DNA from: Oscillospiraceae bacterium
GTDB lineage: Bacteria; Bacillota; Clostridia; Oscillospirales; Oscillospiraceae
Assembly: GCA_017440525.1 (NCBI GenBank)
Contig: JAFSHB010000091.1
Span: 1 to 58,747, forward strand
Reading direction: 5' to 3'
DNA length: 58,747 bases
Numbering within the stretch: the stretch's first letter is position 1; each line of letters begins with the position of its first letter. The notes below the pieces were generated by a model. The model worked only from the letters and a program-made list of their open reading frames with translations. It did not search any database and was not told the origin of the DNA. The translations under genes were made by a program, and so were the position numbers. Of this stretch, positions 5,060 to 58,230 are shown piece after piece.

Positions 5060-5091
5060 AACATCTTTTTATAGAACTAAATCAGCTTTGT

Positions 5092-11906: not shown

Positions 11907-12125
11907 ATCACGATCAGCTTGCGTTTTCACATGCCGTTTTGAGCATCGGTCTCTCCCCCCCCTGTTTCCTCATCACCGTGATCCATCATTTTTGCAGAAA
12001 CATACTGCATCCGGGCGAAAAGTATGTTATAATGGATGTTCAGTCACCGATCCGGCGTCTGTCGGTGCTAATATTTTGTGGCTGAGGAAAAGTGTGTTGA
12101 CCTTACACGGTCAAAGGAGGACTTT

Positions 12126-13340
12126 ATGAAAAAAACGATCTGCGAGCTCTTCGCAGGTGTGGGCGGGTTCCGCTTGGGATTTGACCGCCTTCAGACCGGC
12201 TGGGAGACCACATGGTTCTCCCAATGGGAGCCGGGCGCAAAGACCCAATGGGCTCACGACTGCTATGTACGCCATCATGGTGACTGTGCCGATCTGCAAG
12301 GCGAATACCACACCGGTGAGGATATCAGCACCATAGACAAGACTGTGATCCCCGACCACTCGGTCTTGGTGGGTGGTTTCCCCTGCCAGGACTACAGCGT
12401 GGCACATACCTTAGCTTCTTCCAAGGGCATCGAGGGCAAGAAGGGCGTGCTTTGGTGGCAGATTCGAGATACGCTCATCGCAAAGAAGGCATCCTTCTGT
12501 ATTTTTGAGAATGTGGACCGGCTCCTCAAATCCCCCGCCTCTCAGCGAGGCAGAGACTTCGGCATCATTTTGGCATGCCTTGCGGAGCTGGGCTACAGCG
12601 CCGAATGGCGAGTCGTCAACGCCGCACAGTACGGTGCGGCCCAGCGCCGCCGCAGGATCTTCATCTTTGCCTATCGCAACGATACCGCATACGCAAAAAA
12701 AATGGAACTTTGCTCCGCGAACGCTGTCATCCGTAAAGACGGCTTTATGGCCAAGGCCTTCCCTGTTTCCCAGATCGGCGATATCACCACCGCGAGCCTC
12801 GACACTGATATCGTTTCTGTGAGCGACAGCTTCCGCTTTGCCTTTGAAAATGCCGGCTATATGCAGGACGGCGAGATCTATACGGCAAAGATCGAAGAGA
12901 CGGAAGAAGCCCCCATCCCGCTGGGACAGGTCCTACAGCGTGATGTTGATGAAAAATATTATATCCCCACAGAGAAGATCGCCAAGTGGACCTACCTGAA
13001 GGGTGCGAAAAAGATTCCCAGAACTTCTGCCGATGGCCACGAGTATGTCTTCTCCGAAGGGCCGATCGCGTTCCCCGATCCGTGGGACAAGCCCAGCCGC
13101 ACCATGCTGACCAGTGAATCTACCCTCAACCGCTCTACCCATGTGGTCACAGACCCCGGTACAGGCAGGTTGCGTCTTCTGACCCCTGTGGAGGCCGAAC
13201 GGCTGCAGGGATTTGATGACCAGTGGACCAACGGCATGCCGGACAGGATGCGATATTTCTGCATGGGAAATGCCCTGGTCGTCTCCATGGTCACGAGGAT
13301 GGGAACGGTGCTCGACACCATCATCGCGAAAGAGCCGTAA
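12126..13340 (+). CDS. dcm: DNA (cytosine-5)-methyltransferase
   Basis: Motif I FAGVGG, motif IV FPCQDYS, motif VI ENV, QRRRR and C-terminal GNA. Start at MKKTICELFAGVGG. Confidence 0.9.
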   Translation: MKKTICELFAGVGGFRLGFDRLQTGWETTWFSQWEPGAKTQWAHDCYVRHHGDCADLQGEYHTGEDISTIDKTVIPDHSVLVGGFPCQDYSVAHTLASSKGIEGKKGVLWWQIRDTLIAKKASFCIFENVDRLLKSPASQRGRDFGIILACLAELGYSAEWRVVNAAQYGAAQRRRRIFIFAYRNDTAYAKKMELCSANAVIRKDGFMAKAFPVSQIGDITTASLDTDIVSVSDSFRFAFENAGYMQDGEIYTAKIEETEEAPIPLGQVLQRDVDEKYYIPTEKIAKWTYLKGAKKIPRTSADGHEYVFSEGPIAFPDPWDKPSRTMLTSESTLNRSTHVVTDPGTGRLRLLTPVEAERLQGFDDQWTNGMPDRMRYFCMGNALVVSMVTRMGTVLDTIIAKEP

Positions 13341-13341
13341 G

Positions 13342-13809
13342 ATGAAGCATCCAAAGGCCTATGACTCCACGCCCCAGACCCGAGCACGGATGTCCCGTGT
13401 TCGGCTCAAGGGCGGCAAGGCGGAACAGATCCTTGCAAAAGCCCTCTGGAAAAAGGGCTACCGCTATCGCAAAAACGACAAACGGCTGCCCGGCTCCCCC
13501 GACATCGCCATTTTGAAGCATCACATCGCCGTGTTCGTAGACGGTGAGTTTTGGCACGGGCAAAACTGGGAGTCACGGAAGTCAAAGCTACAGCGGAATC
13601 GAGAGTATTGGATCGAAAAAATCGAAGAAAACATAGCCCGTGATCGCCGCAACGATCAGCTTTTGCAGGACATGGGCTGGACCGCGATACATTTTTGGGA
13701 AAAAGAAGTCCTCAAGAGAACAGTCGACTGTGTTGCCGTGATCGAAGAGATCATCCTTACAGCGCTGATCGACCGTGCGGAAGAGCTCGTCCTGCCGCCG
13801 GAAGAATGA
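13342..13809 (+). CDS. vsr: Very-short-patch repair endonuclease
   Basis: PDIAILKHHIAVFVDGEFWHG and the downstream NxxRD segment are typical of Vsr. It starts 2 nt after the dcm stop. Confidence 0.88.
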   Translation: MKHPKAYDSTPQTRARMSRVRLKGGKAEQILAKALWKKGYRYRKNDKRLPGSPDIAILKHHIAVFVDGEFWHGQNWESRKSKLQRNREYWIEKIEENIARDRRNDQLLQDMGWTAIHFWEKEVLKRTVDCVAVIEEIILTALIDRAEELVLPPEE

Positions 13810-13885
13810 TCTTGACAGCTTGTCCCATTTATTGGACGGGCTCTATACTATACTGTCCTCAGCGTTTCGATCTGGAGGTATCTCA

Positions 13886-14422
13886 ATGAAAGAACGATAT
13901 ATCGTATTTGATGTGGAGACGCCCAATCGTGCCAATGACCGCATGAGTGCCATCGGCATCACAGTGGTGGAGGATGGGAAGATCCGCGACAGCTTTTATT
14001 CTCTGGTCGATCCCGAAGCCCGGTTCGACTATTTCAACATCCAACTGACCGGCATCTCGCCGGAGGATGTGAAGGATGCGCCTGATTTCGCCGCGCTTTG
14101 GCAGACCATCGAGCCGATCTTCTCCTCCGGCATCCTGGTGGCCCACAACGCCCCCTTTGACATGGGCGTCCTTGCCAAGTGTCTGCGGGCCTACGGTATC
14201 CGCTGGAAGGCACAGGCTTACTATGCCTGCACCTGCGCTATGGGAAAGCAGTGCTACCCGAATCTCCCCAACCACAAGCTGAACACCATGTGTGAAGCGC
14301 TGGGCATCAGCCTCGATCACCACCGGGCCGACAGCGACAGCACAGCCTGCGCCAAGCTCCTGCTGGACTATCAGGCACAGGGCTTCTCTGTCAGACCGTT
14401 CATCCGTACATACCGCTTGTGA
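13886..14422 (+). CDS. DEDDh 3'-5' exonuclease (DnaQ/PolC-exonuclease-like)
   Basis: Exo I VFDVETPN, Exo II LVAHNAPFDMGVL, Exo III HHRADSDSTA. GGAGG RBS before ATG 13886. Confidence 0.85.
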   Translation: MKERYIVFDVETPNRANDRMSAIGITVVEDGKIRDSFYSLVDPEARFDYFNIQLTGISPEDVKDAPDFAALWQTIEPIFSSGILVAHNAPFDMGVLAKCLRAYGIRWKAQAYYACTCAMGKQCYPNLPNHKLNTMCEALGISLDHHRADSDSTACAKLLLDYQAQGFSVRPFIRTYRL

Positions 14423-14433
14423 TGATACTGCGT

Positions 14434-14470
14434 ACCTCTCTGCCGACTTCGGCAGAGAGGTGCATTTTTT
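14434..14470 (+). terminator. Intrinsic terminator after the exonuclease gene
   Basis: Stem acctctctgccg / cggcagagaggt followed by gcatttttt. Confidence 0.7.
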
Positions 14471-14484
14471 AAACTGACAGTTTA

Positions 14485-14513
14485 TTGCAAAGGCTGGCAG
14501 ACAGTCGTATGAT
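14485..14513 (+). promoter_or_regulatory. Candidate promoter of the VWA-LRR-AAA operon (TTGCAA-17-TATGAT)
   Basis: Hexamers ~35 nt upstream of ATG 14549, which has an aaggagg RBS. Confidence 0.45.
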
Positions 14514-14548
14514 ATAGTGGGTATTCATTCAAAAGGAGGTGCTGTCTT

Positions 14549-15880
14549 ATGACGGAGGCACAGCAGGAACGGCTCATCGAGCTGGCCCGCGAAGCGCTGG
14601 ACAGCTCGCGGGATTCACTGATCATGAATCTGCGGTATATGGATCTGGCACTTGATCGGCTGGAGTATCATCCCATCGAAGTTTCCTCACTGCTCACAGA
14701 CGGAGATCATCTGCTCTTCCACCCGGAGCATGTCATGAAAAACTTCAGATCCGACGGATGCATCTGCACACGGGACTACCTTCATGTGGTCCTGCACTGT
14801 GTGTTCCGCCACATGTATCCGGCGCCTGCCCTTGACCGCCCCCTCTGGGATCTGGCCTGCGATATCGCGGTAGAGACGGTGATCTGTGAGATGGATATCG
14901 CTGCCGTGGAAGCGCCGCGCCAGAGTTCGCAGCTCCAGTATATCCGCGGGTTGAAGCATGATATCGGACAATTGACAGCAGAGAATATCTACCGCGCTCT
15001 GCTGAAGACTGAAGCGGACGGTCTGAAGGCCGCAGATCTGCGAGCCGCCTTCTACGCTGATGACCACGAGATCTGGTATATGACGGCAGAAGAGATCGAA
15101 CAGCGCTTCGGGCTCTCTCCAAACGGTCCCACCACCACCAGTAAGTCCGAATCCGAACAGGCGTGGCAGGAGATATCCTCCCGCATGGAGACGGAATTGG
15201 CTTCCTTCGGCAAACTCCCCGGCACCACCCCCGGCGATCTTCTCCAAAACCTCAGCGAGGTCAACCGCGAGCGGTATGATTACACCGCGTTCTTAAAAAA
15301 ATTTGCCGTCCTTGGCGAGGTCATGCAGATCAATGACGAGGAATTCGACTACATCTACTACACCTACGGCATGAAGCTCTACAAGAAGATGCCTCTGATC
15401 GAGCCTCTGGAATACAAGCAGGTCAAGCGCATCCGGGACTTCGTCATCGCCATCGACACCTCCGGCTCCACTTCCGGGGAACTGGTGCAGAAATTCGTCC
15501 AAAAGACCTACAACATCCTCAAATCTACGGAGAGTTTCTTTTCCAAGATCAATTTATACATCATCCAGTGTGACGCTGTCATCCAGGAGGCTGTGAAGAT
15601 CACCTCTCAGGAGGAGTTCGACGACTATCTCAAGCACATGCAGATCCACGGACTTGGCGGAACGGACTTCCGCCCCGTGTTCGACTATGTAGACAAGCTT
15701 CGGGCGAGCAAGGAGCTGACCGACCTGAAAGGCTTGATCTATCTCACCGACGGTTTCGGTGAGTTCCCTCGAAAGAGGCCCGACTATGAAACAGCCGTCG
15801 TCTATATCGAAGATGGCCGCAACAACCCGACCGTCCCACCTTGGGCCATCAAGCTGATCCTGCGGAGCAACGAGATCTGA
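14549..15880 (+). CDS. VWA-like domain protein with N-terminal putative metallopeptidase-like domain (DUF2201 type)
   Basis: The C-terminal segment VIAIDTSGSTSGE (MIDAS-like DxSGS) is a von Willebrand A fold. The N-terminal helical domain carries LHVVLHCVFRH. This is the typical partner of MoxR/AAA_5 ATPases. Confidence 0.7.
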   Translation: MTEAQQERLIELAREALDSSRDSLIMNLRYMDLALDRLEYHPIEVSSLLTDGDHLLFHPEHVMKNFRSDGCICTRDYLHVVLHCVFRHMYPAPALDRPLWDLACDIAVETVICEMDIAAVEAPRQSSQLQYIRGLKHDIGQLTAENIYRALLKTEADGLKAADLRAAFYADDHEIWYMTAEEIEQRFGLSPNGPTTTSKSESEQAWQEISSRMETELASFGKLPGTTPGDLLQNLSEVNRERYDYTAFLKKFAVLGEVMQINDEEFDYIYYTYGMKLYKKMPLIEPLEYKQVKRIRDFVIAIDTSGSTSGELVQKFVQKTYNILKSTESFFSKINLYIIQCDAVIQEAVKITSQEEFDDYLKHMQIHGLGGTDFRPVFDYVDKLRASKELTDLKGLIYLTDGFGEFPRKRPDYETAVVYIEDGRNNPTVPPWAIKLILRSNEI

Positions 15881-45623: not shown

Positions 45624-45717
45624 AGTTCAATTTTCTGTTGCAAGTTTTTCTTTTTTTCTGTATAATGCAGATAAGTTCAATTTTCATTGAGGTAGCTTTA
45701 TGGAAAGTTCAATTTTC
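45624..45717 (+). promoter_or_regulatory. Promoter TTGCAA-17-TATAAT (45638..45666) flanked by three copies of the 12-mer AGTTCAATTTTC
   Basis: 12-mer copies at 45624..45635, 45674..45685 and 45706..45717. The last copy lies inside the first codons of the HTH-aminotransferase gene. Confidence 0.55.
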
Positions 45718-47175
45718 ACTAAAAGATTCAATTCTCTTTTGAAAGCTAAGAACATGAAGCAGGTGGATCTGCTCCGTCTGGCAGAAGCCCGGGGCGTCAA
45801 GCTGGGCAAGAGCCAGCTTTCCCAGTATCTCTCCGGCAAGACCCTGCCGCGGAAAGATATGCTCCGCTTTCTGGCATCAGCGCTGGAAACAGACATAGAC
45901 TTTCTTCTGGGCAAGGATATGCCCATCTGTGAAACTCCTCCGAAAGGTGATGATACCATGAGAACATTCAACAAATCCTCCAAGCTGGAGAATGTCCTTT
46001 ACGATGTACGAGGCCCTGTTGTGGACGAAGCCGCCCGCATGGAAGAGGCCGGTGCGCAGGTCCTGAAGCTGAACATCGGCAACCCCGCCCCCTTCGGCTT
46101 CCGCGCCCCCGATGAAGTCATCTTCGATATGCGCCGCCAGCTGACAGAGTGCGAGGGCTATTCCCCCTCCAAGGGCCTGTTCGCCGCCAGAAAGGCGATC
46201 ATGCAGTATGCCCAGCTGAAAAACATCCCCAATGTGACCATGGAGGATATCTACACCGGCAATGGCGCCAGCGATCTGATCAATCTGGCGCTGCTGGCAC
46301 TTTTGGATTCCTGAGATGAAGTCCTCATACCTTCCCCCGACTATCCTCTGTGGACGGCATGCGTGACTCTTGCAGGCGGCAGGCCTGTGCATTATATCTG
46401 CGACGAAGCCTCTGAGTGGTATCCTGATATCGAGGATATGCGGAAAAAGATCACCGCAAAGACTAAGGCGATCGTCATCATCAACCCCAATAACCCCACC
46501 GGTGCACTGTATCCCAAGGAGGTCCTGCAGCAGATCGTGGACTTGGCAAGAGAGCATCAGCTTATGATCTTCTCCGATGAGATCTACGACCGCCTCGTCA
46601 TGGACGGTCTGGAGCATATCTCCATCGCGTCTCTTGCTCCCGACCTGTTCTGCATCACCCTCAGCGGTCTTTCCAAATCCCACATGGTGGCAGGCTTCCG
46701 CGTGGGCTGGATGATCCTCAGCGGCAATAAAAAGCTGGCAAAGGACTACATCGACGGTCTGAATATGCTGGCCAATATGCGCCTTTGCTCCAATGTGCCT
46801 GCCCAGTCCATCGTGCAGACCGCCCTTGGCGGCTACCAGAGCGTCAAAAACTATCTGGTGCCCGGCGGCAGACTGTACGAACAGCGTGAGTTCGTCTACA
46901 AGGCCCTCAATGACATCCCCGGCATCACCGCCGTGAAGCCCAAGGCGGCGTTCTACATTTTCCCCAAGATCGATACCAAGCGCTTCAACATCACTGACGA
47001 TGTGCAGTTCGCGCTGGACTTCCTGCGGGAGAAGCATGTGCTTCTGATCAACGGACGCGGCTTTAACTGGCATGAGCCGGATCACTTCCGCGTGGTGTAT
47101 CTGCCCCGTGTGGAGGTCCTGACCGATGCCATGGGCAAGCTGAAGGATTTCCTGTCCACCTACCGCCAAGGCTGA
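45700..47175 (+). pseudogene. alaA: XRE-HTH::class-I aminotransferase (AlaA-like) fusion, interrupted by an in-frame TGA at 46312..46314
   Basis: ORFs 45700..46314 and 46363..47175 share one frame. Read-through gives ..LINLALLALLDS*DEVLIPSPDYPLWTA.., collinear with E. coli AlaA ..ALLNSGDEMLVPAPDYPLWTA.. (quoted from memory), with the stop at the conserved Gly. SGLSKSHMVAGFR contains the PLP lysine. Confidence 0.8.
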
Positions 47176-47905: not shown

Positions 47906-48640
47906 TCAAGATTCCCGCAGGCACCATTTTTGAAACGCCTTTGGAACATGGACATCCACCAACGACGGACAGCCCCAGAAAGAACATCGGGATATCTCCA
48001 CGAGCCCATCGGAGAGCCGAAGCTTCATAAGCTTCTCACAATTGCCGAATGCGAATGTTCCCACCTTCGTCACAGAGTCTGCCATGTACACTTCCGCCAG
48101 CTTGGGGCAATCCATAAACGCCTCGACTTCGATGGACCTGACACCCTCCGGCACATGGAGTTTTTTTATGCCGCTGTTTGCAAATGCCTGTGTATCGATG
48201 ACAGTCGGTGCAGGCTCCGGCAGCAGTTCTGCCAATTCGATACAATCCGCAAAAGCACGCCTTCCGATCTTGAAGAGCTCCTGAGGGAATGTAACTTCGC
48301 GCAATTCCAAGCAGGAAAAGCACAGGCCCGGTGCCACTTCTGTCAGCTTGGGAGGAAGCGTCAACGATCGAATACCGGTCTCGGCAAAGGCATAGTCACC
48401 AAGTCTCTCGATGCTGTCAGCCAAGACCACGGATGTCAGTTCACGCCTTCCCACGAAAGCATAGGACGCGACCGAGGTACATCCCTCTTCGATCACTACT
48501 TCATGAAACTTGAGTGCCGCCCAGGGGAAGGGCTTTTCCTCCCACATATCGCCCATCCCGGTGACGATCAGTCTGCCCTCCGGTGTACAGGTCCAGAACA
48601 GTGCGTCTCCGCACCGGCCTGTAAGTGCCGTTTTATCCAT
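47906..48640 (-). CDS. Leucine-rich repeat protein (BspA/LRR_5 type), 244 aa
   Basis: Repeats of the form I..gvtsIgxxAFxxCxxLxxv, same class as the 15904..17661 product. Confidence 0.75.
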   Translation of the reverse strand: MDKTALTGRCGDALFWTCTPEGRLIVTGMGDMWEEKPFPWAALKFHEVVIEEGCTSVASYAFVGRRELTSVVLADSIERLGDYAFAETGIRSLTLPPKLTEVAPGLCFSCLELREVTFPQELFKIGRRAFADCIELAELLPEPAPTVIDTQAFANSGIKKLHVPEGVRSIEVEAFMDCPKLAEVYMADSVTKVGTFAFGNCEKLMKLRLSDGLVEISRCSFWGCPSLVDVHVPKAFQKWCLRES

Positions 48641-48740: not shown

Positions 48741-48770
48741 AAATAAAACAGGGCCGTCTATTGACGGCCC
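48741..48770 (-). terminator. Intrinsic terminator closing the seven-gene operon
   Basis: gggccgtc aata gacggccc, followed on the minus strand by tgttttatttg. Confidence 0.65.
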
Positions 48771-48794
48771 CAGGGGGTGCTATGAGGTCAGGGA

Positions 48795-49838
48795 TCAGGC
48801 GTACACGACACCCTCTTCCTCCTCGCAGACAGCCTCTTCTTCGTAGTTTTCTTCGAGGTCAGATGTTTCTTCCTCTTCGCAAGCTTCCACAGTCTCAGCG
48901 GGAGCCTTCAGTCCCAGCTTCACCAGCAGGTCGTTCACCATGCGCACACACTTCACCAGAAGTGCACGGGCGGCGCGGCCGGCCTCTGCCGCCTTCATCT
49001 TGATCGTGACGCCCAGACGGGTCTCATCGAGACCTGCAGGCAGCATAGCATCGATGGTCTCGACCACCAGGATCATGGCGCTGATCGCACCCAGGATCAA
49101 GAGACCGGATGTGACGGTGAGACCGGCGGCAGGCGCAAGGATCAACAGAACAAAGCCACCCAGACAGATACGGCCAAGGGCATTGATCGCCGCTTCTTGA
49201 TCGAATTTGAAGGCAGCCTTCTGGGAGCAGTAGTGATCCACCTCAGAGGCGAAGCACACCATGGCAGTCAACTGCTCATCCGTCATCTCGCCCCACTCTT
49301 CGGGCAGCTTGTCTGTAGCCTTCAGGTTCAGGACCGCGGCGGCCGCCAGAGTCTGACGCAGGGGCAGCTCGGACTCAGACACTTCATAGATGTCGGCGTT
49401 GCCTTCGCTGCGGACCTTTGCGAACTGGGTCAGGACACAGTGTGCCACGACACGACTCAGGCCATGGACATCCAGTGCAGTACCTGCCAGCTCCAGATCC
49501 TCAGCTTCTTCTTCGGGCAGCTGCGCCTTCAGTTCCTCGCCCAGAGCTGCCAGCAGCTGGGTCGCCCAGCTGTGCATGGTCTGTTCATCGAGCTCCAGAC
49601 GGTCGACCTCAGCTTCCAGTTCCTCGGGGGTCATAGCCTTGTAGGCCTCGGCCTGTTCGCGGGTCTGCTCGGTCAGTGCCTTCACGCGGGCCACTTCGAC
49701 CGCGATCTCTTCCTGGGTCATCTCACGGTCCTGAGACACCAGTCTTGCCAGCGCCTCATCAAAGGTCGCTCTGCTCATGTCACCAAGGCCAAGCTTCACA
49801 CGCTGGGCGATCACAGCAGTCATCTTTTCGTTCTTCAT
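48795..49838 (-). CDS. Hypothetical membrane protein with highly acidic C-terminal tail (operon gene 7)
   Basis: AGGAGG RBS before ATG 49838. Coiled-coil-like N-terminal half, TM segment(s) LGGFVLLILAPAAGLTVTSGLLILGAISAMILVV, tail EEEETSDLEENYEEEAVCEEEEG. I recognise no family. Confidence 0.7.
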   Translation of the reverse strand: MKNEKMTAVIAQRVKLGLGDMSRATFDEALARLVSQDREMTQEEIAVEVARVKALTEQTREQAEAYKAMTPEELEAEVDRLELDEQTMHSWATQLLAALGEELKAQLPEEEAEDLELAGTALDVHGLSRVVAHCVLTQFAKVRSEGNADIYEVSESELPLRQTLAAAAVLNLKATDKLPEEWGEMTDEQLTAMVCFASEVDHYCSQKAAFKFDQEAAINALGRICLGGFVLLILAPAAGLTVTSGLLILGAISAMILVVETIDAMLPAGLDETRLGVTIKMKAAEAGRAARALLVKCVRMVNDLLVKLGLKAPAETVEACEEEETSDLEENYEEEAVCEEEEGVVYA

Positions 49839-49968
49839 TGTTTTGTCCTCCTTTTGTGTCGTTGGTGGTTTGCTTTCCATGGCTCCATCTTACACCATCG
49901 ATCCATATTTTTCGAGGTAAGCGATCTGGAGATCCGGCCTTTTTGAAATATTTTCAAAAAGCTGTACA

Positions 49969-51738
49969 TCACAGTTCTCTGGACAGCTCCCGATCCATGT
50001 ACATGCCGATCCAATGGAACAGTCTCTCGTCATACTTATGGGTGAACTGATTCGGTTTTTTCAGGCACAGAGGATCCATTTTCTTTTCCTTCGCATGATC
50101 GTAGGGCTCCATATTTTTCTTCACGACTGCGCCCGCACAGAACCGATCTTTGGATATCACACCGCCACCGTTTGCCGCGATATGCTGCTTCTCCATGACC
50201 GTGCAGTAGCCCTGTGCCGCCAAACGCAGGGTCTTGGGCACGCGGGCATCCACACTGGTACCATAACGATTCACAACATCTTCCATCTTTGCCTTGGCTT
50301 CCTGCTGATCGACTGTAGTCCGCACGCCCGGGAGACCGCCCATCTCGATGGCAAGATTTTTGGCAAGGTGGTTGATGTCCGAGCCGGTCATAAAGCGCGG
50401 CAGTTCTTCACTGCCCATGCAGATCTCCACCATCTCGCCGGCGAGCTTATCATCTACGCCGATGAAATGCCGCTCAAGATGGTGCTTCATGATATCCCTG
50501 CACTCCAGATAGCAGGGCAGCATCATGGTAAAGATCGCATCGATCCTGCCAAATCTGGTAAATTCGGGCGGGAGCTTGCTGATGTCATTGGCAGTCGCAA
50601 CGATGAACACCGTCTTCTTCATCTCCTGCATGAACTCCAGCAGTTTGCCGAACAATCTCTGCGTCACACCGGAATCCCCGCTTTTGCCGTCGGCACCGCT
50701 GAAGGCCTTTTCGACCTCGTCGATCCAGAGGACACAGGGCGCACCGGCGATCTGCAGATCCTCCATGACCTCATCCATGCCCTTTTCACTTTCGCCCACC
50801 AGACTGCCAAGGACACGGCTCATCTCCAGCTTCACCAGCGGCAGCTCCAGTACCCGCGCAACGGTCTTGGCCGTCAAAGACTTGCCCGTACCGGGAAGGC
50901 CCAGAAGCACCATGCCCTTGGTCAGGTCATCCGGCTTGGCATCGTCTGTCCTCAGGATATTCTTCTTCTGTACTTTCATCCAGTTCTCTACAGAGGCCAC
51001 ACCGTTCGTCGGGCTCTGAGGCACCTCCAGGCACTGCAGCTTGCCGTGACGCTCCAGGCGTTTCTGCTTCTCTCTGACGATGAACTTTTCCGCCGTCTCC
51101 CGCATCTTCAGCTTATCATATCTATTCTGTTTTTCGCCATACGCGATCTGTGCCAGCACAGCGCGCACATCCCGCTCTGTAAAACCGGCAAAACGGTTTT
51201 GATACCATCGTACCGTATCGTCATCCCATTTTTCCCCCGGGCACTGCTCGCTCAGGAGGGCACGAAAGTCCTTCGTTTCCAATGCAGGGAGCTTCACATA
51301 CTGTGTATATGGCTCCAGCATGGCAGGGAGCTTCAGGCGGCTCCCAAAGACCACCGCACAGTGCTTGGGCGCAAAGCTGCCGTTGAACAGATACTGCTGC
51401 AGCATCCGTTCCGCATAGTCCAGCAGATAGGCCGTCTGTTTCTCACTCAAAGAGCCCTTCGTATCTGCCCCCAGATATAACACGGTCTTTTTTTCAGGAG
51501 AAAGAAGCTCATCCCATGCGGCTTTCTTTCCATCCCAGATCTGCAGATCGACGAACCGTTCACTGTAGAGATTCGATTCGCCGCTCGACGCGCTGTCCTC
51601 TGCGACCTTGAGAAAAGCGTTCATCATCACGCATGCCATCTGTTCGTAGTCATCCGTTGCCAGATGGATGATCGGCCTATACCGAAGCAGCGCCAGCGCC
51701 CTTGCTACATCGGGGATCATATGTTTATATACGCTCAT
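49969..51738 (-). CDS. Classical-clade AAA+ ATPase with ~300-aa unknown N-terminal domain (operon gene 6)
   Basis: Walker A GLPGTGKS, Walker B VLWIDEVEKAF, sensor-1/SRH VATANDISKLPPEFTRFGRIDAIF. AGGAGG RBS before ATG 51738. Confidence 0.82.
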   Translation of the reverse strand: MSVYKHMIPDVARALALLRYRPIIHLATDDYEQMACVMMNAFLKVAEDSASSGESNLYSERFVDLQIWDGKKAAWDELLSPEKKTVLYLGADTKGSLSEKQTAYLLDYAERMLQQYLFNGSFAPKHCAVVFGSRLKLPAMLEPYTQYVKLPALETKDFRALLSEQCPGEKWDDDTVRWYQNRFAGFTERDVRAVLAQIAYGEKQNRYDKLKMRETAEKFIVREKQKRLERHGKLQCLEVPQSPTNGVASVENWMKVQKKNILRTDDAKPDDLTKGMVLLGLPGTGKSLTAKTVARVLELPLVKLEMSRVLGSLVGESEKGMDEVMEDLQIAGAPCVLWIDEVEKAFSGADGKSGDSGVTQRLFGKLLEFMQEMKKTVFIVATANDISKLPPEFTRFGRIDAIFTMMLPCYLECRDIMKHHLERHFIGVDDKLAGEMVEICMGSEELPRFMTGSDINHLAKNLAIEMGGLPGVRTTVDQQEAKAKMEDVVNRYGTSVDARVPKTLRLAAQGYCTVMEKQHIAANGGGVISKDRFCAGAVVKKNMEPYDHAKEKKMDPLCLKKPNQFTHKYDERLFHWIGMYMDRELSREL

Positions 51739-51749
51739 CGTTCCCCTCC

Positions 51750-53723
51750 TTAGAAGCCTGCATATACGGAGCGGCCGATCGACAGTGCCAGCGCCTCCAG
51801 ATATGCCTTGGGAACACCGAAGGCATCTTCTATCCACCGATCGTGCAGTTTCTTCTTCAGCTCTTCATATGTCTGATCTTCGATATCTTTGCGAGCATTA
51901 GCCTTTTTCAGTTCTTTTACGATTCGATTTCTTCTACCCTGCCCGAGCTCAAGATCCAGAGAATCCTTGGTATCGATGTCAAAGATCGTCGCAATAATAG
52001 CCCACACAAGAACCAACGGCCAAATGATCATGATCACCCAGTCACTGATATTCCCGCAAAGACTCGACACGACCTTCTTCACAGTGCCCGTCAATGTATC
52101 CACCGGGAACTGGACATCGGGGAGCTCCCACCGGGCACGATTCGCATCTGTATGATACAGTTCGTTCATCACTTCCGAGATGATCTTCTGGAAGTCCGCC
52201 TTCTTTGCAGCAGCCGCCGCTGCTGCTGCAGACTTTCCTTTTTCATCAAGGGTATCTTTATGCTCCTGCTGTTCCATTATGGGCATCACCATCCCGAGCA
52301 GATCGCGGCCGGTCTTCTTGCCTTTCTCCGCAGCCCACGCCTCTGCCTTCGGCAGGAGGATCTGATTCATCAGATAGGGGTAAAGTTTCTCAGCAGCCTT
52401 TCTTGCGATCCCATCGCACAGCCCCTCCGACGCTTCTTTCAGGCGGTCTTCCAGCGCCGGAACGACCTTGAGTACCGCCAGTGCCTTTGCGTAATACTGC
52501 AGCATACCACAGGGAACAGCTTCATCGATCAGCTTGTCATTGATCTCATCGGGATACACCTTTTCCGCCCCCCAGACTTCCCGGGCATAGGCTCTGATCG
52601 CATCCGCCGCAGGCGTCATTCTGGCTGCGCCGCCGGTGATCAGCACGCAATCCACATTCCCGATCTTTAGTTCCGCACCGGCATCTGCCAGAAACTTCTT
52701 CAGATGCTCCGTATAGGATGCCGTATGGCTCTGGTTGCTGTCGATCGTATCGGTCTCAAACACCTGCGCAGCCACTGCGCGGTTGAGATCGCCGGGCTTG
52801 ATCGAGCAGCTCATCTCTTTGACATAGATCTCCTGCTCCTTTGTGCCCTCGGGCCAGAACTTTTCCTTGATCGCACGGATATCAAAGAGCAGGCTCTTGG
52901 GATCCACATTGGTGCCGGAGCTTGCTGCCGCGATCTTCGCCAGAAGGAGATCCACCTGACCGCCGCCCAGGCGAACGGACGCATCCCGATGGGCAGCACC
53001 GGACTGCAAGACAGTCTTATCGATGTATGTGATATCCGCAGAATAGGCACCCAGATCGATGATCGCGATCTTCTCCATCCTGCCGATGTCATGCCACAGA
53101 TTCAGGGCATAGACGATCGCCGCGTTGGATTCGCTCATAGTCAGAACATCGCCGACACCGGTGGCTTCTTTGACGATCGCCTCAAGATTGGTGCGAGCCT
53201 CCTTTGCCTTCCAGTCTGCTGAATCCGGATGGCCTACCAGCACCAGAACATCAGAGCTATTGTAGCCTTTCAGCACCTCATTCTGCCCCCAGATATTCTT
53301 ATACAGGGCACGGATGTAGTCCACGAGCAATTCCTTTCTGGAGCGATAGCTCTCACTGCCCGCATCGTTTTCCGCACGAATCGCCGTCTTCAGATTTTGA
53401 TCGGTGGGCACACACTTATAATTGGAGTATCGGCGCTGGCACATCTGTGCCGCCTTACCGATCTTGATCATCCCATCCGTATCATAGCCGATCACCGACC
53501 AGCAGGAATAAGGGTCGCCGCCACGGAGCTTGTTGACCCGCAGAAGCTGCGTCTCACCCATGCCGCCGTCATCCACGACCGCCCATGCCGCACTACAGTT
53601 GCCGCCACCCACATCCAGCGCGATCACGGCTTTATAGCTGCCGGAAAGTCTCAGTGCCTCCGCAAAGGTGATCTCGTTCTCCTCAAACAGATACCGGGCG
53701 ATCTGATCTCTTACTTTATGCAT
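51750..53723 (-). CDS. Divergent Hsp70/actin-fold (ASKHA) ATPase with helical C-terminal region and C-terminal TM helix (operon gene 5)
   Basis: Phosphate-1 IALDVGGGNCSAAW, connect SESNAAIVYAL, phosphate-2 IAIIDLGAYSADITY, LGGGQVD, adenosine VLITGGAARMTP. Poly-Ala tract; TM helix WVIMIIWPLVLVWAIIATIF. Confidence 0.72.
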   Translation of the reverse strand: MHKVRDQIARYLFEENEITFAEALRLSGSYKAVIALDVGGGNCSAAWAVVDDGGMGETQLLRVNKLRGGDPYSCWSVIGYDTDGMIKIGKAAQMCQRRYSNYKCVPTDQNLKTAIRAENDAGSESYRSRKELLVDYIRALYKNIWGQNEVLKGYNSSDVLVLVGHPDSADWKAKEARTNLEAIVKEATGVGDVLTMSESNAAIVYALNLWHDIGRMEKIAIIDLGAYSADITYIDKTVLQSGAAHRDASVRLGGGQVDLLLAKIAAASSGTNVDPKSLLFDIRAIKEKFWPEGTKEQEIYVKEMSCSIKPGDLNRAVAAQVFETDTIDSNQSHTASYTEHLKKFLADAGAELKIGNVDCVLITGGAARMTPAADAIRAYAREVWGAEKVYPDEINDKLIDEAVPCGMLQYYAKALAVLKVVPALEDRLKEASEGLCDGIARKAAEKLYPYLMNQILLPKAEAWAAEKGKKTGRDLLGMVMPIMEQQEHKDTLDEKGKSAAAAAAAAKKADFQKIISEVMNELYHTDANRARWELPDVQFPVDTLTGTVKKVVSSLCGNISDWVIMIIWPLVLVWAIIATIFDIDTKDSLDLELGQGRRNRIVKELKKANARKDIEDQTYEELKKKLHDRWIEDAFGVPKAYLEALALSIGRSVYAGF

Positions 53724-53798
53724 TCTGTTTCCTCCTTTGTTTTTATCGAAAAGCACAGTCGCTTTACAGCCTCAGTCTAGCAAAAAGCCAACTGACTG

Positions 53799-54791
53799 TC
53801 ACGGTAAGCGATCTGGAATATCTGTCCCCGGAGCCGGGACCTCCACATCTTCTGCAGCTCCCGGAAGCTCCGCCTCTGCCTGAGGCACCCGCGCTTCTTC
53901 CCACAACCGGGGATACTCCTGCTCCAGATCCTGACACAGATCATCCGACAGGGTTTTCAGCTCCGATCGCAGCAGCCCCCGCACCTGTCCGGCCCATGCC
54001 CGCAGATCGCAGCGGCTCATACCGCGCAGGTCTCGCAGTGCCCGGAACAGTGCCTCATATGGTGTCTGCTCCAGAGGCATTTGCAGAGTGATAAAGCGGG
54101 ATCTCAGCGCATCCAGAGAGCAGTCTGTCTGCGGAGTGCTCTGTGTGGGGACAGCATTGCTCTGTTCATACAGTTCCTCCAGCTCTTCCATCGTCTGCGA
54201 AAAATATCCGCTGTAAACATCCAGTTTCCCGTCATTTCCCACATCGGCATTTTCCAGCATGATGCACAGTAAGGCCAGCAGACCGGTCTCAGAGAGCATT
54301 TTTTTATTCAGGTCATGGATCCATCGAGCTTTTGCTTCACGCCGCTGCAATTCCTTGCCGGTCCTTATCCGGCATTCCTCCAGGATCTTCTGCAGCCGCT
54401 CCATGCGAATTATAAGCTCCTGCCTCATCCTCTTTTCATCGTATGGCATCCCCTCGGGCATGCGGCATTCCCGAACTCGCGCAAGACCGTCAACAATAGT
54501 CTCTTTGCCGTTCAGTTTGTTCGTCCGCTTCTTTGCAGGGACAAAGGTATGATACTTTTCCAAAAGCAGCAGGGTCTGCCGATATTCCTCCCGTGTCATC
54601 ACAGGGGCTGCCGCGGGCTTCTTTGCGTAGTCTGACCGACCGTTTCCGCGAATGCCGGTCGGCTTTCCGGCTTCTCTTTTCTCCTCATTCTCCCAATTCT
54701 GTGGGCGAATGAACTGTTCTTTGACCTTTTGGAATAAAGAAGTCTCCTTCTCTTCTCCCACATTTTTCTGCTTCCGATCTCCGTAGCTCAC
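53799..54791 (-). CDS. Hypothetical protein, charged/coiled-coil rich (operon gene 4)
   Basis: GTG start 54791 behind AGGAGG, 330 aa. I recognise no family. Confidence 0.65.
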   Translation of the reverse strand: MSYGDRKQKNVGEEKETSLFQKVKEQFIRPQNWENEEKREAGKPTGIRGNGRSDYAKKPAAAPVMTREEYRQTLLLLEKYHTFVPAKKRTNKLNGKETIVDGLARVRECRMPEGMPYDEKRMRQELIIRMERLQKILEECRIRTGKELQRREAKARWIHDLNKKMLSETGLLALLCIMLENADVGNDGKLDVYSGYFSQTMEELEELYEQSNAVPTQSTPQTDCSLDALRSRFITLQMPLEQTPYEALFRALRDLRGMSRCDLRAWAGQVRGLLRSELKTLSDDLCQDLEQEYPRLWEEARVPQAEAELPGAAEDVEVPAPGTDIPDRLP

Positions 54792-54805
54792 GGATGATTC
54801 CTCCT

Positions 54806-55984
54806 TTACGCACCGGAAAACCTGCCGGCCGGCGTGATCGAATAAGTGTGACCACTGCGCTCGATTCGCTCTGCCGCATCTCCATCATCCTCGGGGAAGC
54901 CAGCCAGCATACAGCGGATCACATCCTCTTTACTGTATGTCCCTTCATCGGATGCAAGCACCTTGCCGCTGCGATCCAGCAGAAGGATCACATCTTTCTC
55001 CGTTTTCGCGGCAGCACAGATGTCCTCCGCCTTGGCCAATCCCAGCAGATTGGAGGTCACAGTCCCATTCTTATGTACTGCGGCATATGCACCTTGCATC
55101 GTATAGATGCCCACGACATCCTGCACAGTCAGATAGTCATCACCATCGCGTACCCGTGCTTCTCCACCCCGGACACGGCAGAGATATCCTTTGTCCTGCA
55201 CGGCAAAGTCCTGCACACCCGACATATTGTTTTCCGCACTCTCTTTTTTGTTGCTGCCGTCCACACGGCAGTAGACGAACTTATCCCCCTGCGCAGCCGC
55301 GACCCAATCACCGTTGGAGCGAAGGCCGCCTCTGATACAGGTCGCCGTTCCCCCAATGGCCCACGCGGTGAGCTGCCCACCGGCAGGTATCTTGACGGTA
55401 CCGATCGCGATGCCATCCTCAGTCTCTTTGAGTTCCACAGTCTTTGCCACATCTGTATGATTGCAATATACCTGCACCCTCATATCGCCCGCAGACAGAT
55501 CGTGCTGCCGAAAGTACAAGATATCAGGGATCTTACCGCCAATGTCCACATCGGTTTTCCATCTGGAGCGCATGGCCTTTTGCAGCCGATTCGGAAAGTC
55601 AGCGAAACGCTTTGCACAAACTGCACACAGCATCACGATGCAGCAGAACGCCTTATCCCGATCCTCTGTTTCGAAGCCCTTGACAAGCGCTTCTGTATCA
55701 TTTTCGATGGCATTCAGCAGACCCTCATCCCAATAGTCCGTACCTCTGTCATAAAATGTGTCAAGAAGGTCTTTTACTGTTTCGCGCTTTCCCGCAAATA
55801 CCTTTTCCGCACGAGGGCTCGATCCTTGCAGGCCGAAGCCTTCCAAGAACCAGGTGAGCAGTGCCTTCCCCTCGTCCTCCTTTGAAAAATACTTTTCGTC
55901 TAATCCCTCAGCATCGTTCTTCAGAGCGTCCCATGTTGGCACCTCGTATGCCTGACCTTGTGCATCCTTTGTCCAGATCTCCAT
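54806..55984 (-). CDS. Hypothetical protein (operon gene 3)
   Basis: 392 aa, gaggag RBS, beta-rich Gly-rich C-terminal half. I recognise no family. Confidence 0.7.
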   Translation of the reverse strand: MEIWTKDAQGQAYEVPTWDALKNDAEGLDEKYFSKEDEGKALLTWFLEGFGLQGSSPRAEKVFAGKRETVKDLLDTFYDRGTDYWDEGLLNAIENDTEALVKGFETEDRDKAFCCIVMLCAVCAKRFADFPNRLQKAMRSRWKTDVDIGGKIPDILYFRQHDLSAGDMRVQVYCNHTDVAKTVELKETEDGIAIGTVKIPAGGQLTAWAIGGTATCIRGGLRSNGDWVAAAQGDKFVYCRVDGSNKKESAENNMSGVQDFAVQDKGYLCRVRGGEARVRDGDDYLTVQDVVGIYTMQGAYAAVHKNGTVTSNLLGLAKAEDICAAAKTEKDVILLLDRSGKVLASDEGTYSKEDVIRCMLAGFPEDDGDAAERIERSGHTYSITPAGRFSGA

Positions 55985-55999
55985 ATCATTCTCTCCTCT

Positions 56000-56926
56000 T
56001 TATTGATATTCTGTTGCCTGCTCCTGTTCCTCAAGGACAGTCTCAACGCCCTCTTCCTGTTCGGTCATCTGCACATCCTGCGCCTGCATCTCCCGAGACA
56101 GCGCCTCAGACCAGAGTTCCACCGCCCCGACATCAGCCAGCTGCGATCCGCATCTTTGCCGATCCAACTCCAAAGGCTCCTTCAGATGCTCCAGCACATC
56201 CTCTGCCATGTACGACAGCTCTATGAGCGATGCCGCACATCCGCATAGCACCGGAAATGCCGTCACATGCATATAGGCACAGGCCAATACGCTGCTGACG
56301 ACCGCAGCGGCCGCACCAAAGCCAAAGCATATGGTCTGTGCAAGGCCTCTGCTCCAAAAGCACACGGCATCAAACGAAAGATCCGGCGCGATATAAGGCG
56401 GCCGTTCCCGCTTCACCAGTGTGTAGATGCCCATAGCCAAAAGGCCCGACAAGGGCAGTACCAGAAGTTTCGCATCCTTTGACGCGGCATACCTCCGTGG
56501 GAACGCCCCATCCATCGGTGTCTTCTCCACCAGCTTCAAAAGTGCCAGATCTTCCTCCGGCCTATGGGGGCCCAACGCCTCCCGCCGTTCCAGCTTGGCA
56601 GCGATCTCTTCTTTCCGCAGGGCATCGCCATGCATGGAAGCCGCCAAGTGGCACATGCCATTGACCGTCAGGCTCGCCTCGGTCCCAAGGTCCTCCACCA
56701 GTGCCTTATACCACGCATCCTTTGACTGCACATAGCGTTCCAGCTGCGCTTCAAATTCCTGATCGATCTCCAGCAGGCGCCGCGCAAATACCGGTGCGAT
56801 ATCCTCCATTTTGACCGCGTCGGAAAATCCCCGTTCATAGATCTGCTCCAGCACCTGCGGCAGCTTCTTCTCATCTTTCGCCGCCTCGATCAATTCCGGC
56901 GTAAAGAGCTCTTCTATCCTGCTCAT
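56000..56926 (-). CDS. Hypothetical membrane protein with acidic C-terminus (operon gene 2)
   Basis: ATGA overlap with gene 1. TM segments LLVLPLSGLLAMGIYTLV and ICFGFGAAAAVVSSVLACAYMHVTAFPVLCGCAASLI. Confidence 0.7.
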   Translation of the reverse strand: MSRIEELFTPELIEAAKDEKKLPQVLEQIYERGFSDAVKMEDIAPVFARRLLEIDQEFEAQLERYVQSKDAWYKALVEDLGTEASLTVNGMCHLAASMHGDALRKEEIAAKLERREALGPHRPEEDLALLKLVEKTPMDGAFPRRYAASKDAKLLVLPLSGLLAMGIYTLVKRERPPYIAPDLSFDAVCFWSRGLAQTICFGFGAAAAVVSSVLACAYMHVTAFPVLCGCAASLIELSYMAEDVLEHLKEPLELDRQRCGSQLADVGAVELWSEALSREMQAQDVQMTEQEEGVETVLEEQEQATEYQ

Positions 56927-57996
56927 AACTCTATCATCCTTCCGTTTTCATCCGGTATGGCATCTCGTATATCAAGAAGTTCTGTATTTCTATCATCTAT
57001 GAGCAGACCGTGCAGCTTGATCAGCGCTTTCATCGGGATGATGATATCCTTATCAGATTCATACTTCTCATCATAATGAAAAAGATATTTCTTCAAGCTG
57101 CCGATCTTCTCGCACTGCACATCGTAATACAAAAGGAATGCTTTTAAATGTTCCCAATACGAATGGAGCCCATCTTCTTCCGAATGCTGCTGTATCTTGA
57201 ATACACCCACCAATGTGTCATGGTTCTTCGCGCAGATCTCGATCACACCGTCCACCGCACCATGGACGAGAGGATGAAAGCCAAACCGATGGTACAGCGC
57301 TTCACACTTGCTTCTGTCTCCCTCCGAAAGCGCGATCGCAAAGCGTGACGCCGCCTTCATGCTCATTTCTTTTTTTCTGATATTTTTGACTGTGCTCTCA
57401 CTCAATCCCAGGCAGTATGCCACATTCTGCAAATTGCACTTGGGATACTTTTCCATATACGCGCTTACAGGACTGGGAGCATCCTCAGGCACCGGCTTTC
57501 CGATGCCATAAAAGCCAAAGCCCTGCTCCAGTTCCTCTATGGAGATCTCCGGACCTTTATTTTTGTTAGGTAAGAAAGGAACTTCCAATCGTTGGACGAC
57601 CGTACGGCTGGGTCTTCTCCTCACATCGAAGAGCGTGTTTTCAAAGGTCTTTCTCGACACCTCTGTTTTATTTGCCAAATGCTCCCATTTCTTTCCGTAT
57701 GCGGATTCTTTTTTCTCCTTCTTGCCGTCAGCTTCTTTTTTCTCCAGTTCCTTCATGATCTGCGTATTTTCGATCAGCTTCAAAAACCATTGGCGCCGAC
57801 TGTCTCTGAGCTCCCTTTTTTGAGCATCGATCTCGATCGTGAGCAGATCCATGTAGTGCTTCTCGATATCGTCCTGCCAACAGCACACCAGTCCTGTCGG
57901 TGCAGAGACAGCCAGCTCCGGCTTTGTTCCCGTTCTCATACTGCCGGCGTTGTTTATATTCTCTTGTGTGATAAGTGCCTGGTCTCGAGGTAGCAT
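56923..57996 (-). CDS. Hypothetical protein with possible internal HTH (operon gene 1)
   Basis: 357 aa. The segment CNLQNVAYCLGLSESTVKNIRKK looks HTH-like. The start is uncertain. Confidence 0.6.
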   Translation of the reverse strand: MLPRDQALITQENINNAGSMRTGTKPELAVSAPTGLVCCWQDDIEKHYMDLLTIEIDAQKRELRDSRRQWFLKLIENTQIMKELEKKEADGKKEKKESAYGKKWEHLANKTEVSRKTFENTLFDVRRRPSRTVVQRLEVPFLPNKNKGPEISIEELEQGFGFYGIGKPVPEDAPSPVSAYMEKYPKCNLQNVAYCLGLSESTVKNIRKKEMSMKAASRFAIALSEGDRSKCEALYHRFGFHPLVHGAVDGVIEICAKNHDTLVGVFKIQQHSEEDGLHSYWEHLKAFLLYYDVQCEKIGSLKKYLFHYDEKYESDKDIIIPMKALIKLHGLLIDDRNTELLDIRDAIPDENGRMIEL

Positions 57997-58192
57997 ATCC
58001 GTACATCCCTTTCTGTTCCGTACAGCCTCATTATAAAACTGTTTTTTTCCAAAATCACGATAAGTGATCTAGAACGATTCTTCTGGCTGTCATCTCTTAC
58101 TTTTCCTGTATAACATTTTAAACGAATATAGTGAAAAAGCAAGAAGAATCTGATTTCGACCGTTCCCCCTCTAATACGCCCTTGCATCTGTC

Positions 58193-58230
58193 CAAAATAA
58201 AACAGGCAGTGCCCAAGCACTGCCTGTTTT
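58193..58230 (-). terminator. Intrinsic terminator after the amino-acid dehydrogenase gene
   Basis: aacaggcagtgc ccaa gcactgcctgtt, followed on the minus strand by ttattttgg. Confidence 0.7.

Follow-up and report, generated by a model that had tools for sequence, protein, structure and literature searches.

What kind of system is encoded by the seven-gene operon that occupies positions 48795-57996 on the minus strand of contig JAFSHB010000091.1, from an Oscillospiraceae bacterium? Throughout, the window is the full 58,747-nt stretch that was analyzed, and the seven genes are called g1 to g7 in the order in which they are read. A sequence-only reading had singled them out because they combine a Hsp70-like ATPase (g5) with a classical AAA+ ATPase (g6) and could be matched to no system that it could name. 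Our analysis firmly shows that they encode a real and conserved multi-subunit system with two different, apparently active ATPases and at least two subunits that have membrane segments. Profile, structure, and literature searches placed the set in no described system; judged against Pfam, NCBIfam, PADLOC, PHROGs, PDB, and the literature, it is therefore new as a system, though built of known ATPase folds. Our preferred reading, to which we give a probability of about 0.4, is a membrane-associated, ATP-driven switch or remodeling machine whose role most likely lies in conflict, anti-phage defense, or stress rather than in housekeeping.

The Seven Genes Form a Conserved Cassette

A word-indexed set of 5.8 billion proteins holds only nine relatives of g5, which are 32–35% identical to it, and we took the contigs of the eight nonidentical ones, all metagenomic loci, for a synteny comparison. 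One ortholog is annotated as coming from a metagenome-assembled genome of the Oscillospiraceae. The eight loci share a common gene order, encoding proteins of ~350, ~320, ~400, and ~250 amino acids (aa), then a ~720-aa Hsp70-like protein, a ~610-aa AAA+ protein, and a ~455-aa protein. By BLASTP, each of the window proteins g1 to g7 is orthologous to the product of the gene in the same position, with 22–45% identity; g7 is missing in a single locus (L009), and orthologs of g1 were found in seven of the eight, at 22–29% identity. The flanking genes are unlike in each locus, and include an amylase with a peptidase M20, YidC/RNase P, a second AAA+ gene with a YbjN-like gene, and a SNF2, MoxR, and VWA set. 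Since these flanks vary from locus to locus, the cassette is a self-contained module.

The sequence-only reading had itself raised the possibility that the genes stand together by chance, or that some of them are spurious open reading frames (ORFs), in which case they would be no functional unit. We found nothing in favor of this; at most, the 75- and 130-nt gaps could hold internal promoters, and there is a weak promoter-like match at 53802-53774. Gene order and orthology are kept in eight loci with different flanks, synteny extends to genomes of the wider family described below, the core is conserved across phyla, and neutral DNA would have decayed at such identities. Chance juxtaposition is thus refuted by the synteny data, and g1 to g4 and g7, which have same-position orthologs in other loci, are conserved protein-coding genes.

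A second module was seen beside the cassette in three loci (L003, 154-4831; L007, 157-4830; L008, 579-2420 and 14441-15436). Its genes stand in differing arrangements and encode an AAA ATPase of 397 aa, a YbjN-like protein, and further proteins of ~317 and ~501 aa; it may be a functional partner or a separate small system.

A Rare Clade within a Large Family

An exhaustive HMMER search of 1.84 billion cluster representatives with the g5 profile returned 596 clusters at E ≤ 1e-3 and 273 at E ≤ 1e-10. This search was not collecting canonical DnaK, for which one would expect many more than 596 clusters; the matches that we sampled fall below the Pfam HSP70 threshold, and no Pfam model covers them. 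The relatives are 630–830 aa long, with a hydrophobic segment near residue 550–610 in 93 of the 144 top matches. When 185,579 species-representative genomes were scanned for patterns taken from the wide-clade alignment, 415 g5 relatives were detected in Bacteroidales (Phocaeicola coprophilus An818, Porphyromonadaceae), Lachnospiraceae, Oscillospiraceae, Clostridium sp. chh4-2 and MCC353, and Enterocloster, with distant relatives in Nostocales, Methanothrix, Achromatium, and Myxococcales. No close relative of the window clade turned up in these genomes or in the viral and metagenome collections, the patterns from the narrow alignment being too clade-specific. A g6-type AAA+ gene (200–270 bits) lies within 1.5 kb and on the same strand in 36 of 45 loci from Bacillota and Bacteroidota and in none of 35 cyanobacterial, archaeal, and proteobacterial loci. 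Within this large family, which is common in gut Clostridia and Bacteroidales, the window cassette represents a single rare clade.

Searches with g6 yielded three tiers: ~15 clusters of cassette orthologs, a sister family of 680–730 aa, and a very large set of ~500-aa AAA+ proteins from Firmicutes and phages. In the sister loci (L011–L013), which are 8- to 9-gene operons, hidden Markov model and profile–profile comparisons recovered g3, g5, and g6, and a g7-like protein was reached via c2, one of the recurrent accessory families that we defined by clustering neighboring ORFs. By hhalign, the g3 profile is homologous to the propeller families c32 (98% probability), c9 (96.5%), and c7 (82.7%), the last two being homologous to each other (99.3%). 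The homolog of g7 is c2 (96.3%), which recurs more widely than any other accessory family and is itself homologous to c53 of the sister system (96%). Because these homologies of g3 and g7 link the clades, the conserved core consists of g3, g5, g6, and g7, that is, of a probable propeller, a Hsp70-like protein, an AAA+ protein, and a predicted membrane-hairpin protein, and g1, g2, and g4 are clade-specific. The latter have no relatives that we could detect outside the cassette, and hhalign found no homology between them and the accessory families of the sister or wide systems, nor any paralogy between g2 and g7. In their place, other clades have c3, c4, c5, c6, c8, and c10, none of which is in Pfam. 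All four core families are present in at least 31 of 48 loci, a count that comes from crude BLAST clustering and in which some misses are truncated contigs or ORF-calling artifacts. Several loci have tandem g5 paralogs, and a single genome can carry two divergent systems (L025/L027 and L016/L080).

Two observations concern more distant members. A branch of ~640-aa Hsp70-like proteins without an AAA+ neighbor comprises L056, L058, L060-L063, L065-L068, L070-L071, L074-L077, L079, and L081-L093 (Nostocales and other cyanobacteria), L050 and L055 (Methanothrix), and L095, on a Calothrix plasmid (AP018209.1, 10821-12743), where the gene lies between phage-type integrases. The small module of this branch also encodes c11, a protein of ~300 aa, and in part of the loci c28, of ~930 aa. 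In the sister locus L013, which has two tandem Hsp70-like paralogs, the AAA+ stop codon is also where the gene for a HypF-like carbamoyltransferase begins (12076-14724; acylphosphatase, zf-HYPF, Sua5/YrdC, and HypF_C domains).

g5 Joins a Hsp70-Type Head to a Predicted Helical Stalk and Membrane Segment

The divergent ASKHA/Hsp70 motifs that had been noticed in g5 are real. In an AlphaFold2 model built on a nine-sequence alignment (predicted local distance difference test, pLDDT, 77), residues ~30–395 form a Hsp70-type nucleotide-binding domain (NBD), and the top 50 PDB matches of this model in Foldseek are NBDs of Hsp70/DnaK with the exception of one MreB (E ~1e-10, target TM-scores ~0.6). 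A profile of 50 family members aligned with the NBD of Escherichia coli DnaK with 98.3% probability and E = 1.9e-14 (hhalign). In this alignment, the phosphate-1 motif (DxGxxN), the catalytic Glu, the phosphate-2 motif (DxGxxxxD), and the adenosine motif (GGxxR) are in register with D8, E171, D194, and GGQTRMP of DnaK, respectively. Residues D37, G39, K103, E198, D223, G225, D230, and G364-365 are invariant in the 50 diverse members, the equivalence of K103 to K70 of DnaK being uncertain. As the catalytic residues are invariant, the ATPase is probably active. Sequence databases scarcely recognize the protein: its best matches are DnaK in NCBIfam (E = 0.0025) and Hsc70 in PDB (E = 0.025), it lies below the thresholds of Pfam HSP70 and NCBIfam DnaK (16 bits for DnaK against a cut-off of 648), and its weak PHROG matches are to a family of unknown function and to a partition protein (E = 0.007).

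Past the head, the model has no β-sandwich substrate-binding domain and no lid, residues 396–657 being all-helical apart from a hydrophobic segment. Long helices, one of 70 residues, occupy 396–523. The hydrophobic segment that follows (555–573) has a central Pro, and a hydrophobic stretch of ~25–28 residues with such a Pro is present in all nine orthologs, in line with the C-terminal transmembrane helix proposed earlier. It is succeeded by a charged helix rich in Lys, Arg, and Glu and by an invariant C-terminal motif, F-G-[IV]-P...Y...L...I...V (consensus GFGIP). The head, being an ATPase, has to face the cytoplasm, and the sequence beyond the hydrophobic stretch is strongly basic; we therefore infer that g5 is a monotopic membrane hairpin with both ends in the cytoplasm. 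A Pfam scan of the seven proteins revealed no J-protein or GrpE partner.

g6 Is a Classical AAA+ ATPase with a Distinct N-Domain

The assignment of g6 to the classical AAA+ clade, behind a novel N-domain, was borne out. The protein has a single AAA+ module (residues ~270–440), which matches PF00004 (E = 3.5e-26), contains the GLPGTGKS, DEVEK, and TRFGRID motifs, and has the D2 domains of p97/Cdc48 as its nearest relatives in PDB (E = 2e-45). K286 (Walker A), D340/E341 (Walker B), the sensor-1 residue N384, R395, and R398 are invariant in the orthologs. The N-domain of ~270 aa is conserved in the family and has no match in Pfam or PDB. Residues 184–424 match phrog_8638, a 568-position profile of unknown function (E = 1.3e-56), and since this match reaches upstream of the AAA module, part of the N-domain is common to phage and standalone ATPases. 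The phage matches as such cover the generic AAA+ region only. g6 is also related to a very large family of ~500-aa AAA+/AAA_lid_3 proteins from Firmicutes.

g3 and g7 Complete the Core, and g1, g2, and g4 Are Clade-Specific

No sequence family matched g3, which had been called unrecognizable from its sequence, but structure modeling gave it a fold. Its AlphaFold2 model (mean pLDDT 85.7) has an N-terminal helical domain (~1–142) and a C-terminal domain (~150–392) with ~20 strands in 240 residues, the Foldseek matches of which are all propellers (BLIP-II, RCC1-like, BamB, and WD40; E 1e-5 to 1e-3), with low TM-scores of 0.2–0.37. These modest scores suggest that g3 is a helical domain joined to a β-propeller-like one. 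The description of g7 as a membrane protein with an acidic tail was accurate: a helical N-terminal region is followed by one or two hydrophobic segments and usually by the tail, and a P-x-G-x-x-E-T-x-x-G motif is conserved (PAGLDETRLG in the window copy).

Less could be said of the clade-specific proteins. Two helix-turn-helix (HTH)-like stretches are present in g1, as had been suspected, and no profile confirmed them; a weak PHROG repressor match of residues 104–136 (E = 0.018) is the sole hint that g1 may be a regulator, and there is no match in Pfam, NCBIfam, PADLOC, or PDB. The earlier picture of g2 as a multipass membrane protein with an acidic tail stood in part. The window copy has a helical N-terminal half, two moderately hydrophobic segments (153–171 and 199–217), and the tail, and in most orthologs the segments lie below threshold; where three membrane-anchored components had been counted, membrane segments are predicted in at least two subunits. 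The acidic tails of both g2 and g7 are frequent among orthologs and not universal. Conservation of g4 is confined to its C-terminal ~170 residues, which end in a ...YP motif. For g2 and g4, there was no match in the family databases (Pfam, NCBIfam, PADLOC, PHROGs) or PDB, and for g7 none in PDB. Sequence-profile searches of PDB with g1, g2, g3, g4, g5, and g7 gave noise only, and scanning the g1 and g3 alignments member by member against Pfam produced no consistent match.

The System Differs from Those That Share Its Parts

Nothing beyond the AAA domain was recognized by Pfam, NCBIfam, PADLOC, or PDB, the PHROG matches of g6 are to phage AAA+ families, and a full-text search of the literature, the coverage of which was incomplete, found no description of this gene system. 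We therefore compared the set with the systems nearest to its parts. The g5 head has the NBD fold and motifs of Hsp70/DnaK, but the interdomain linker is also absent, a helical stalk and membrane segment take the place of the substrate-binding domain and lid, and no DnaJ or GrpE is encoded. We rejected g5 as a canonical Hsp70 chaperone on these missing domains and on its subthreshold scores. The ATPase module of g6 is nearest to D2 of p97/Cdc48/VAT, with Walker A and B, sensor-1, and the arginines of the second region of homology intact. These proteins have the tandem modules D1 and D2, an N-domain of the double-psi-barrel type, and an aromatic residue in the pore loop, whereas g6 has one AAA module, an unrelated N-domain, and a varied pore loop; it was not accepted as Cdc48/p97 proper, scoring 70.7 against a cut-off of 802 in the CDC48 NCBIfam model. 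DnaK–ClpB and Hsp70–Hsp104 also pair a Hsp70-type NBD with a hexameric AAA+ protein, here found as neighboring genes, but g6 has neither the M-domain nor the second AAA ring of ClpB, g5 has no substrate-binding domain, and the partners here would be membrane-bound and are encoded with four or five extra subunits.

Among defense systems, the only PADLOC and NCBIfam matches are those of g6 to IetA/IteA of Gao_Iet (E 2.7e-17 and 3.5e-16). Gao_Iet was dismissed because the IteA model gives 59 bits against a cut-off of 510 and covers the generic AAA module only, and no IetS-type protease is found in the seven proteins. Comparative genomics has revealed divergent Hsp70-like proteins outside classical proteostasis in prokaryotic systems that, like the one in the window, comprise several genes. 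CnuD is such a protein in CoCoNuT systems, which are defined by a McrB-type GTPase and McrC (DUF2357) (PMC11090510), and a set of conflict systems is defined by a TRAFAC GTPase, with or without tubulin, next to HSP70 (PMC7159879). In both, the Hsp70 homologs keep the substrate-binding domain, unlike g5. Scans with Pfam and PADLOC found no McrB or McrC domain in the operon, and neither a GTPase nor a tubulin domain is present in the operon or related loci, so that both were set aside. The baeRF/Vms1–Cdc48 system was considered and rejected on its published description.

A further lead came from the C-terminal half of g5 relatives. Bacterial dynamin-like proteins have an NTPase head, outbound helices, a hydrophobic insert, and returning helices, and they occur as pairs, for which the tandem g5 paralogs offer a parallel. 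The g5 model recalls this succession, with its head, long helices, insert, and returning helices. In a clostridial g5 relative of the wide type, residues 418–654, the helical and membrane half, match the PADLOC model of LeoBC, a dynamin-like protein from the Eleos defense system (E = 2.2e-10), and when 50 diverse family members were run against PADLOC, 11 matched LeoBC in their C-terminal half (best E = 7.6e-9), two matched LeoA, and two LeoB. The members that match Leo models are homologous to the window g5 over its full length, in single-stretch matches that span the whole g5 profile. Eleos and dynamin-like proteins differ from g5 in having a dynamin GTPase where g5 has a Hsp70-type ATPase, no GTPase is encoded in the operon, and Eleos is without an AAA+, propeller, or g7-like partner. 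Membership in Eleos or the dynamins was rejected for want of a dynamin-type GTPase domain, the head being of Hsp70 type.

A Proposed Membrane-Associated ATP-Driven Machine, and Its Alternatives

We propose a working model in which topology, physical partnership, direction of action, and biological role are inferred from what was observed of the operon, its synteny, the g3, g5, and g6 folds, the ATPase motifs, and the size of the family. The seven gene products would form one self-contained machine at the cytoplasmic face of the membrane. ATP binding and hydrolysis by the g5 head may make the stalk and membrane insert change their conformation or oligomeric state, much as GTP does in dynamin-like proteins. 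g6 would be a hexameric remodeler of the Cdc48/p97 type, tethered by g5 and/or g3. Its substrate would be a partner bound to the membrane, be it g7, a client, or g5 itself, and by unfolding, extracting, or disassembling this partner it might switch the assembly on or recycle it. In this scheme, g3 is a probable adaptor or sensor, g7 a putative membrane-hairpin partner or effector with an acidic tail, and g1, as a possible HTH regulator, g2, and g4 may tune regulation or the choice of target. A more far-reaching version, which we regard as rather doubtful, would make this a new class of machine in which a Hsp70-type head replaces the dynamin GTPase on a stalk and paddle, combined with a Cdc48-like ring, a propeller sensor, and a membrane-hairpin partner, serving immunity or repair at the membrane in gut Bacteroidales and Clostridia.

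A role in conflict, defense, or membrane stress fits the system because of its patchy spread over two phyla, its fast divergence, its replaceable accessories, its partial similarity to Leo, and some of its neighborhoods. The family spans two phyla that share the gut habitat, its distribution is patchy, and accessory subunits diverge fast or are replaced. Of the neighborhoods, L011 has a type I-C CRISPR-Cas system and a DUF4011 helicase; L012 an integrase, a transposase, and a methyltransferase; L009 the SNF2, MoxR, and VWA genes; and L013 an HTH-M78 gene. Several results weigh against this reading. Many loci, that of the window included, are flanked by ordinary metabolic genes. By tblastn, g5 has no match in phages or plasmids, and members of the wide family have no phage match and only the distant plasmid copy in Calothrix. 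PADLOC, which had been named together with DefenseFinder as a check, gave for the seven window proteins only generic AAA matches of g6. No effector domain (nuclease, protease, NADase, or pore-former of known type) is recognizable, in line with the sequence-only reading, which had also seen no transporter or secretion hallmark. The window g5 matches none of the Leo models, and a profile search of PDB with its C-terminal half found neither the bacterial dynamin-like protein BDLP nor LeoA; the Leo likeness could therefore be compositional, a matter of helical and hydrophobic sequence. The membrane topology was read solely from hydropathy and the positive-inside rule. Finally, the pore-loop residue before VG/LG in g6 varies (L, I, Y, R, V, or H), and this lack of a conserved aromatic argues against a processive threading unfoldase.

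The conserved pairing of a Hsp70-type NBD gene with a p97-like AAA+ gene could instead mark a bi-chaperone for the quality control of membrane proteins, in which membrane-tethered g5 would capture or mark a client and g6 unfold or extract it, as in DnaK–ClpB or Cdc48/Msp1, with g3 as adaptor and g7 and g2 as receptors or clients. A ClpB-bound DnaK NBD stands at rank 21 among the Foldseek matches of g5, several loci lie among housekeeping genes (YidC/RNase P, amylase, aminotransferase), and the acidic, probably disordered tails of g2 and g7 could serve as entry tags for an unfoldase. We nevertheless judge this unlikely, as g5 has no substrate-binding domain and no J-protein or GrpE partner, g6 lacks a ClpB-type M-domain as well as the conserved pore-loop aromatic, and a housekeeping chaperone would not be expected to be so rare, patchy, and fast-evolving, with subunits swapped between clades.

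In type II secretion, GspL docks GspE, and the presence of an actin-fold protein with a membrane segment beside the gene for a hexameric ATPase resembles this arrangement. One may thus imagine an export, secretion, or surface-assembly apparatus in which membrane-anchored g5 docks hexameric g6 on a platform of g7 and g2, an idea that agrees with the membrane segments in at least two subunits and with the recurrence of BspA-type leucine-rich repeat (LRR) proteins nearby, in the window (47906-48640) and in six loci. It is quite improbable, however: we found no polytopic channel, secretin, signal-peptide substrate, or PilT/VirB11-type ATPase, the hydrophobic segments resemble hairpins whose flanks are both cytoplasmic, the LRR neighbor in the window has no signal peptide, and the same core occurs in monoderm Clostridia and diderm Bacteroidales without envelope-specific parts. 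More improbable still is a membrane-attached cytoskeletal or positioning system, in which g5 would polymerize like actin, ParM, MreB, or FtsA and g6 would dismantle the filaments. The ASKHA fold of g5, MreB3 at Foldseek rank 22, weak subthreshold matches of the wide family to MreB_Mbl and Alp7A, and the PHROG partition protein all point that way, but both structure and profile comparison place the g5 head nearest to Hsp70 and not to actin or MreB, and there is neither a centromere-binding adaptor nor a plasmid or phage context. We know of no partition or elongation cassette that resembles a system of 7–10 genes in which propeller and membrane-hairpin proteins are encoded.

If the preferred reading of a membrane-associated switch or remodeling machine is right, hundreds of gut-bacterial genomes, including those of P. 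coprophilus and several Clostridium isolates, carry a conserved 7- to 10-gene ATP-driven membrane system. Chaperoning and cytoskeletal polymerization would then be joined by a third use of the Hsp70 ATPase fold, and Hsp70-type and AAA+ engines would be paired at the membrane in a new way; were its conflict role also confirmed, the microbiome would contain an anti-phage or stress system of a new type. The four-protein core defines a testable unit with specific catalytic residues.

Operon Layout and Surroundings

The ORF listing of the window reproduced exactly the seven same-direction genes and the gaps that had been reported for them (Table 1). The intergenic distances from g1 to g7 are -4 (an ATGA overlap), 15, 14, 75, 11, and 130 nt, and this tight spacing suggests translational coupling. 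Strong ribosome-binding sites had been described for most genes; AGGAGG-type sites do precede the start codons chosen for g3 to g7 by the sequence-only reading, and the longer alternative starts proposed by the ORF finder have no such site in front. A TATAAT hexamer, read off the sequence ~30 nt upstream of the g1 start, is a putative promoter element. The clean terminator placed near 48750 is present as a 10-bp stem and T-run, read from 48772 to 48749.

Table 1. Genes of the operon and the elements that border it
Feature	Position	Strand	Description
g1	56923-57996	-	357 aa, soluble, first gene of the operon, clade-specific
g2	56000-56926	-	308 aa, clade-specific; start overlaps g1 stop (ATGA)
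g3	54806-55984	-	392 aa, core component, predicted helical and β-propeller-like
g4	53799-54791	-	330 aa, clade-specific
g5	51750-53723	-	657 aa, core component, Hsp70-type ATPase head
g6	49969-51738	-	589 aa, core component, AAA+ ATPase; start 11 nt past g5
g7	48795-49838	-	347 aa, core component, predicted hydrophobic membrane segment(s)
Intrinsic terminator closing the operon	48749-48772	-	10-bp stem, 7 G-C pairs, then TTTTATTT (T-run)
Intergenic region upstream of g1	57997-58230	-	presumed promoter location
Bidirectional terminator	58199-58230		14-bp stem, between the g1 upstream region and the upstream dehydrogenase gene

Upstream, the neighbor of the operon is a Glu/Leu/Phe/Val-dehydrogenase gene, and the flanks in the window are metabolic, with a split HTH-aminotransferase, a Na:Ala symporter, NiaR, and an ornithine cyclodeaminase. 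Directly past the operon terminator, at 47906-48640 on the minus strand, lies the gene for the BspA-type LRR_5 protein mentioned above, which has 244 aa. LRR_5 proteins of this type (cluster c18) are found near related systems in L005, L008, L017, L045, L049, and L052, a recurrence that may be a link or may merely reflect the abundance of LRR_5 in these taxa.

Other variable neighbors recur in the family, namely, EcsC (seven loci), HD_4 (six), ADP-ribosylglycohydrolase (five), HD-AAA_33 (four), metallophosphoesterase (three), and DUF1810. A set of hydrolase and accessory genes (EcsC, HD_4, ADP-ribosylglycohydrolase, HD with AAA_33, calcineurin-like phosphoesterase, CpsB-type PHP phosphatase, and DUF1810) is located at 17480-21695 in L030, 15194-20589 in L069, 1-4235 in L072, 16623-19239 in L047, 16256-18668 in L008, and 2696-3115 in L014. 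Its recurrence beside systems of different clades suggests a connection with the chemistry of nucleotides or ADP-ribose.

Two features of the window lie apart from the operon. A fusion of HTH_3 with a class I/II aminotransferase at 45700-47175 on the plus strand is split into ORFs 45700-46314, which holds the N-terminal part of the aminotransferase, and 46363-47175, which probably reflects a frameshift, decay to a pseudogene, or an error of assembly. Far from the operon, the GC content falls from a background of ~0.55 to 0.405 at 4001-6000 and to 0.455 at 10001-12000, in DNA that may be foreign or AT-rich.

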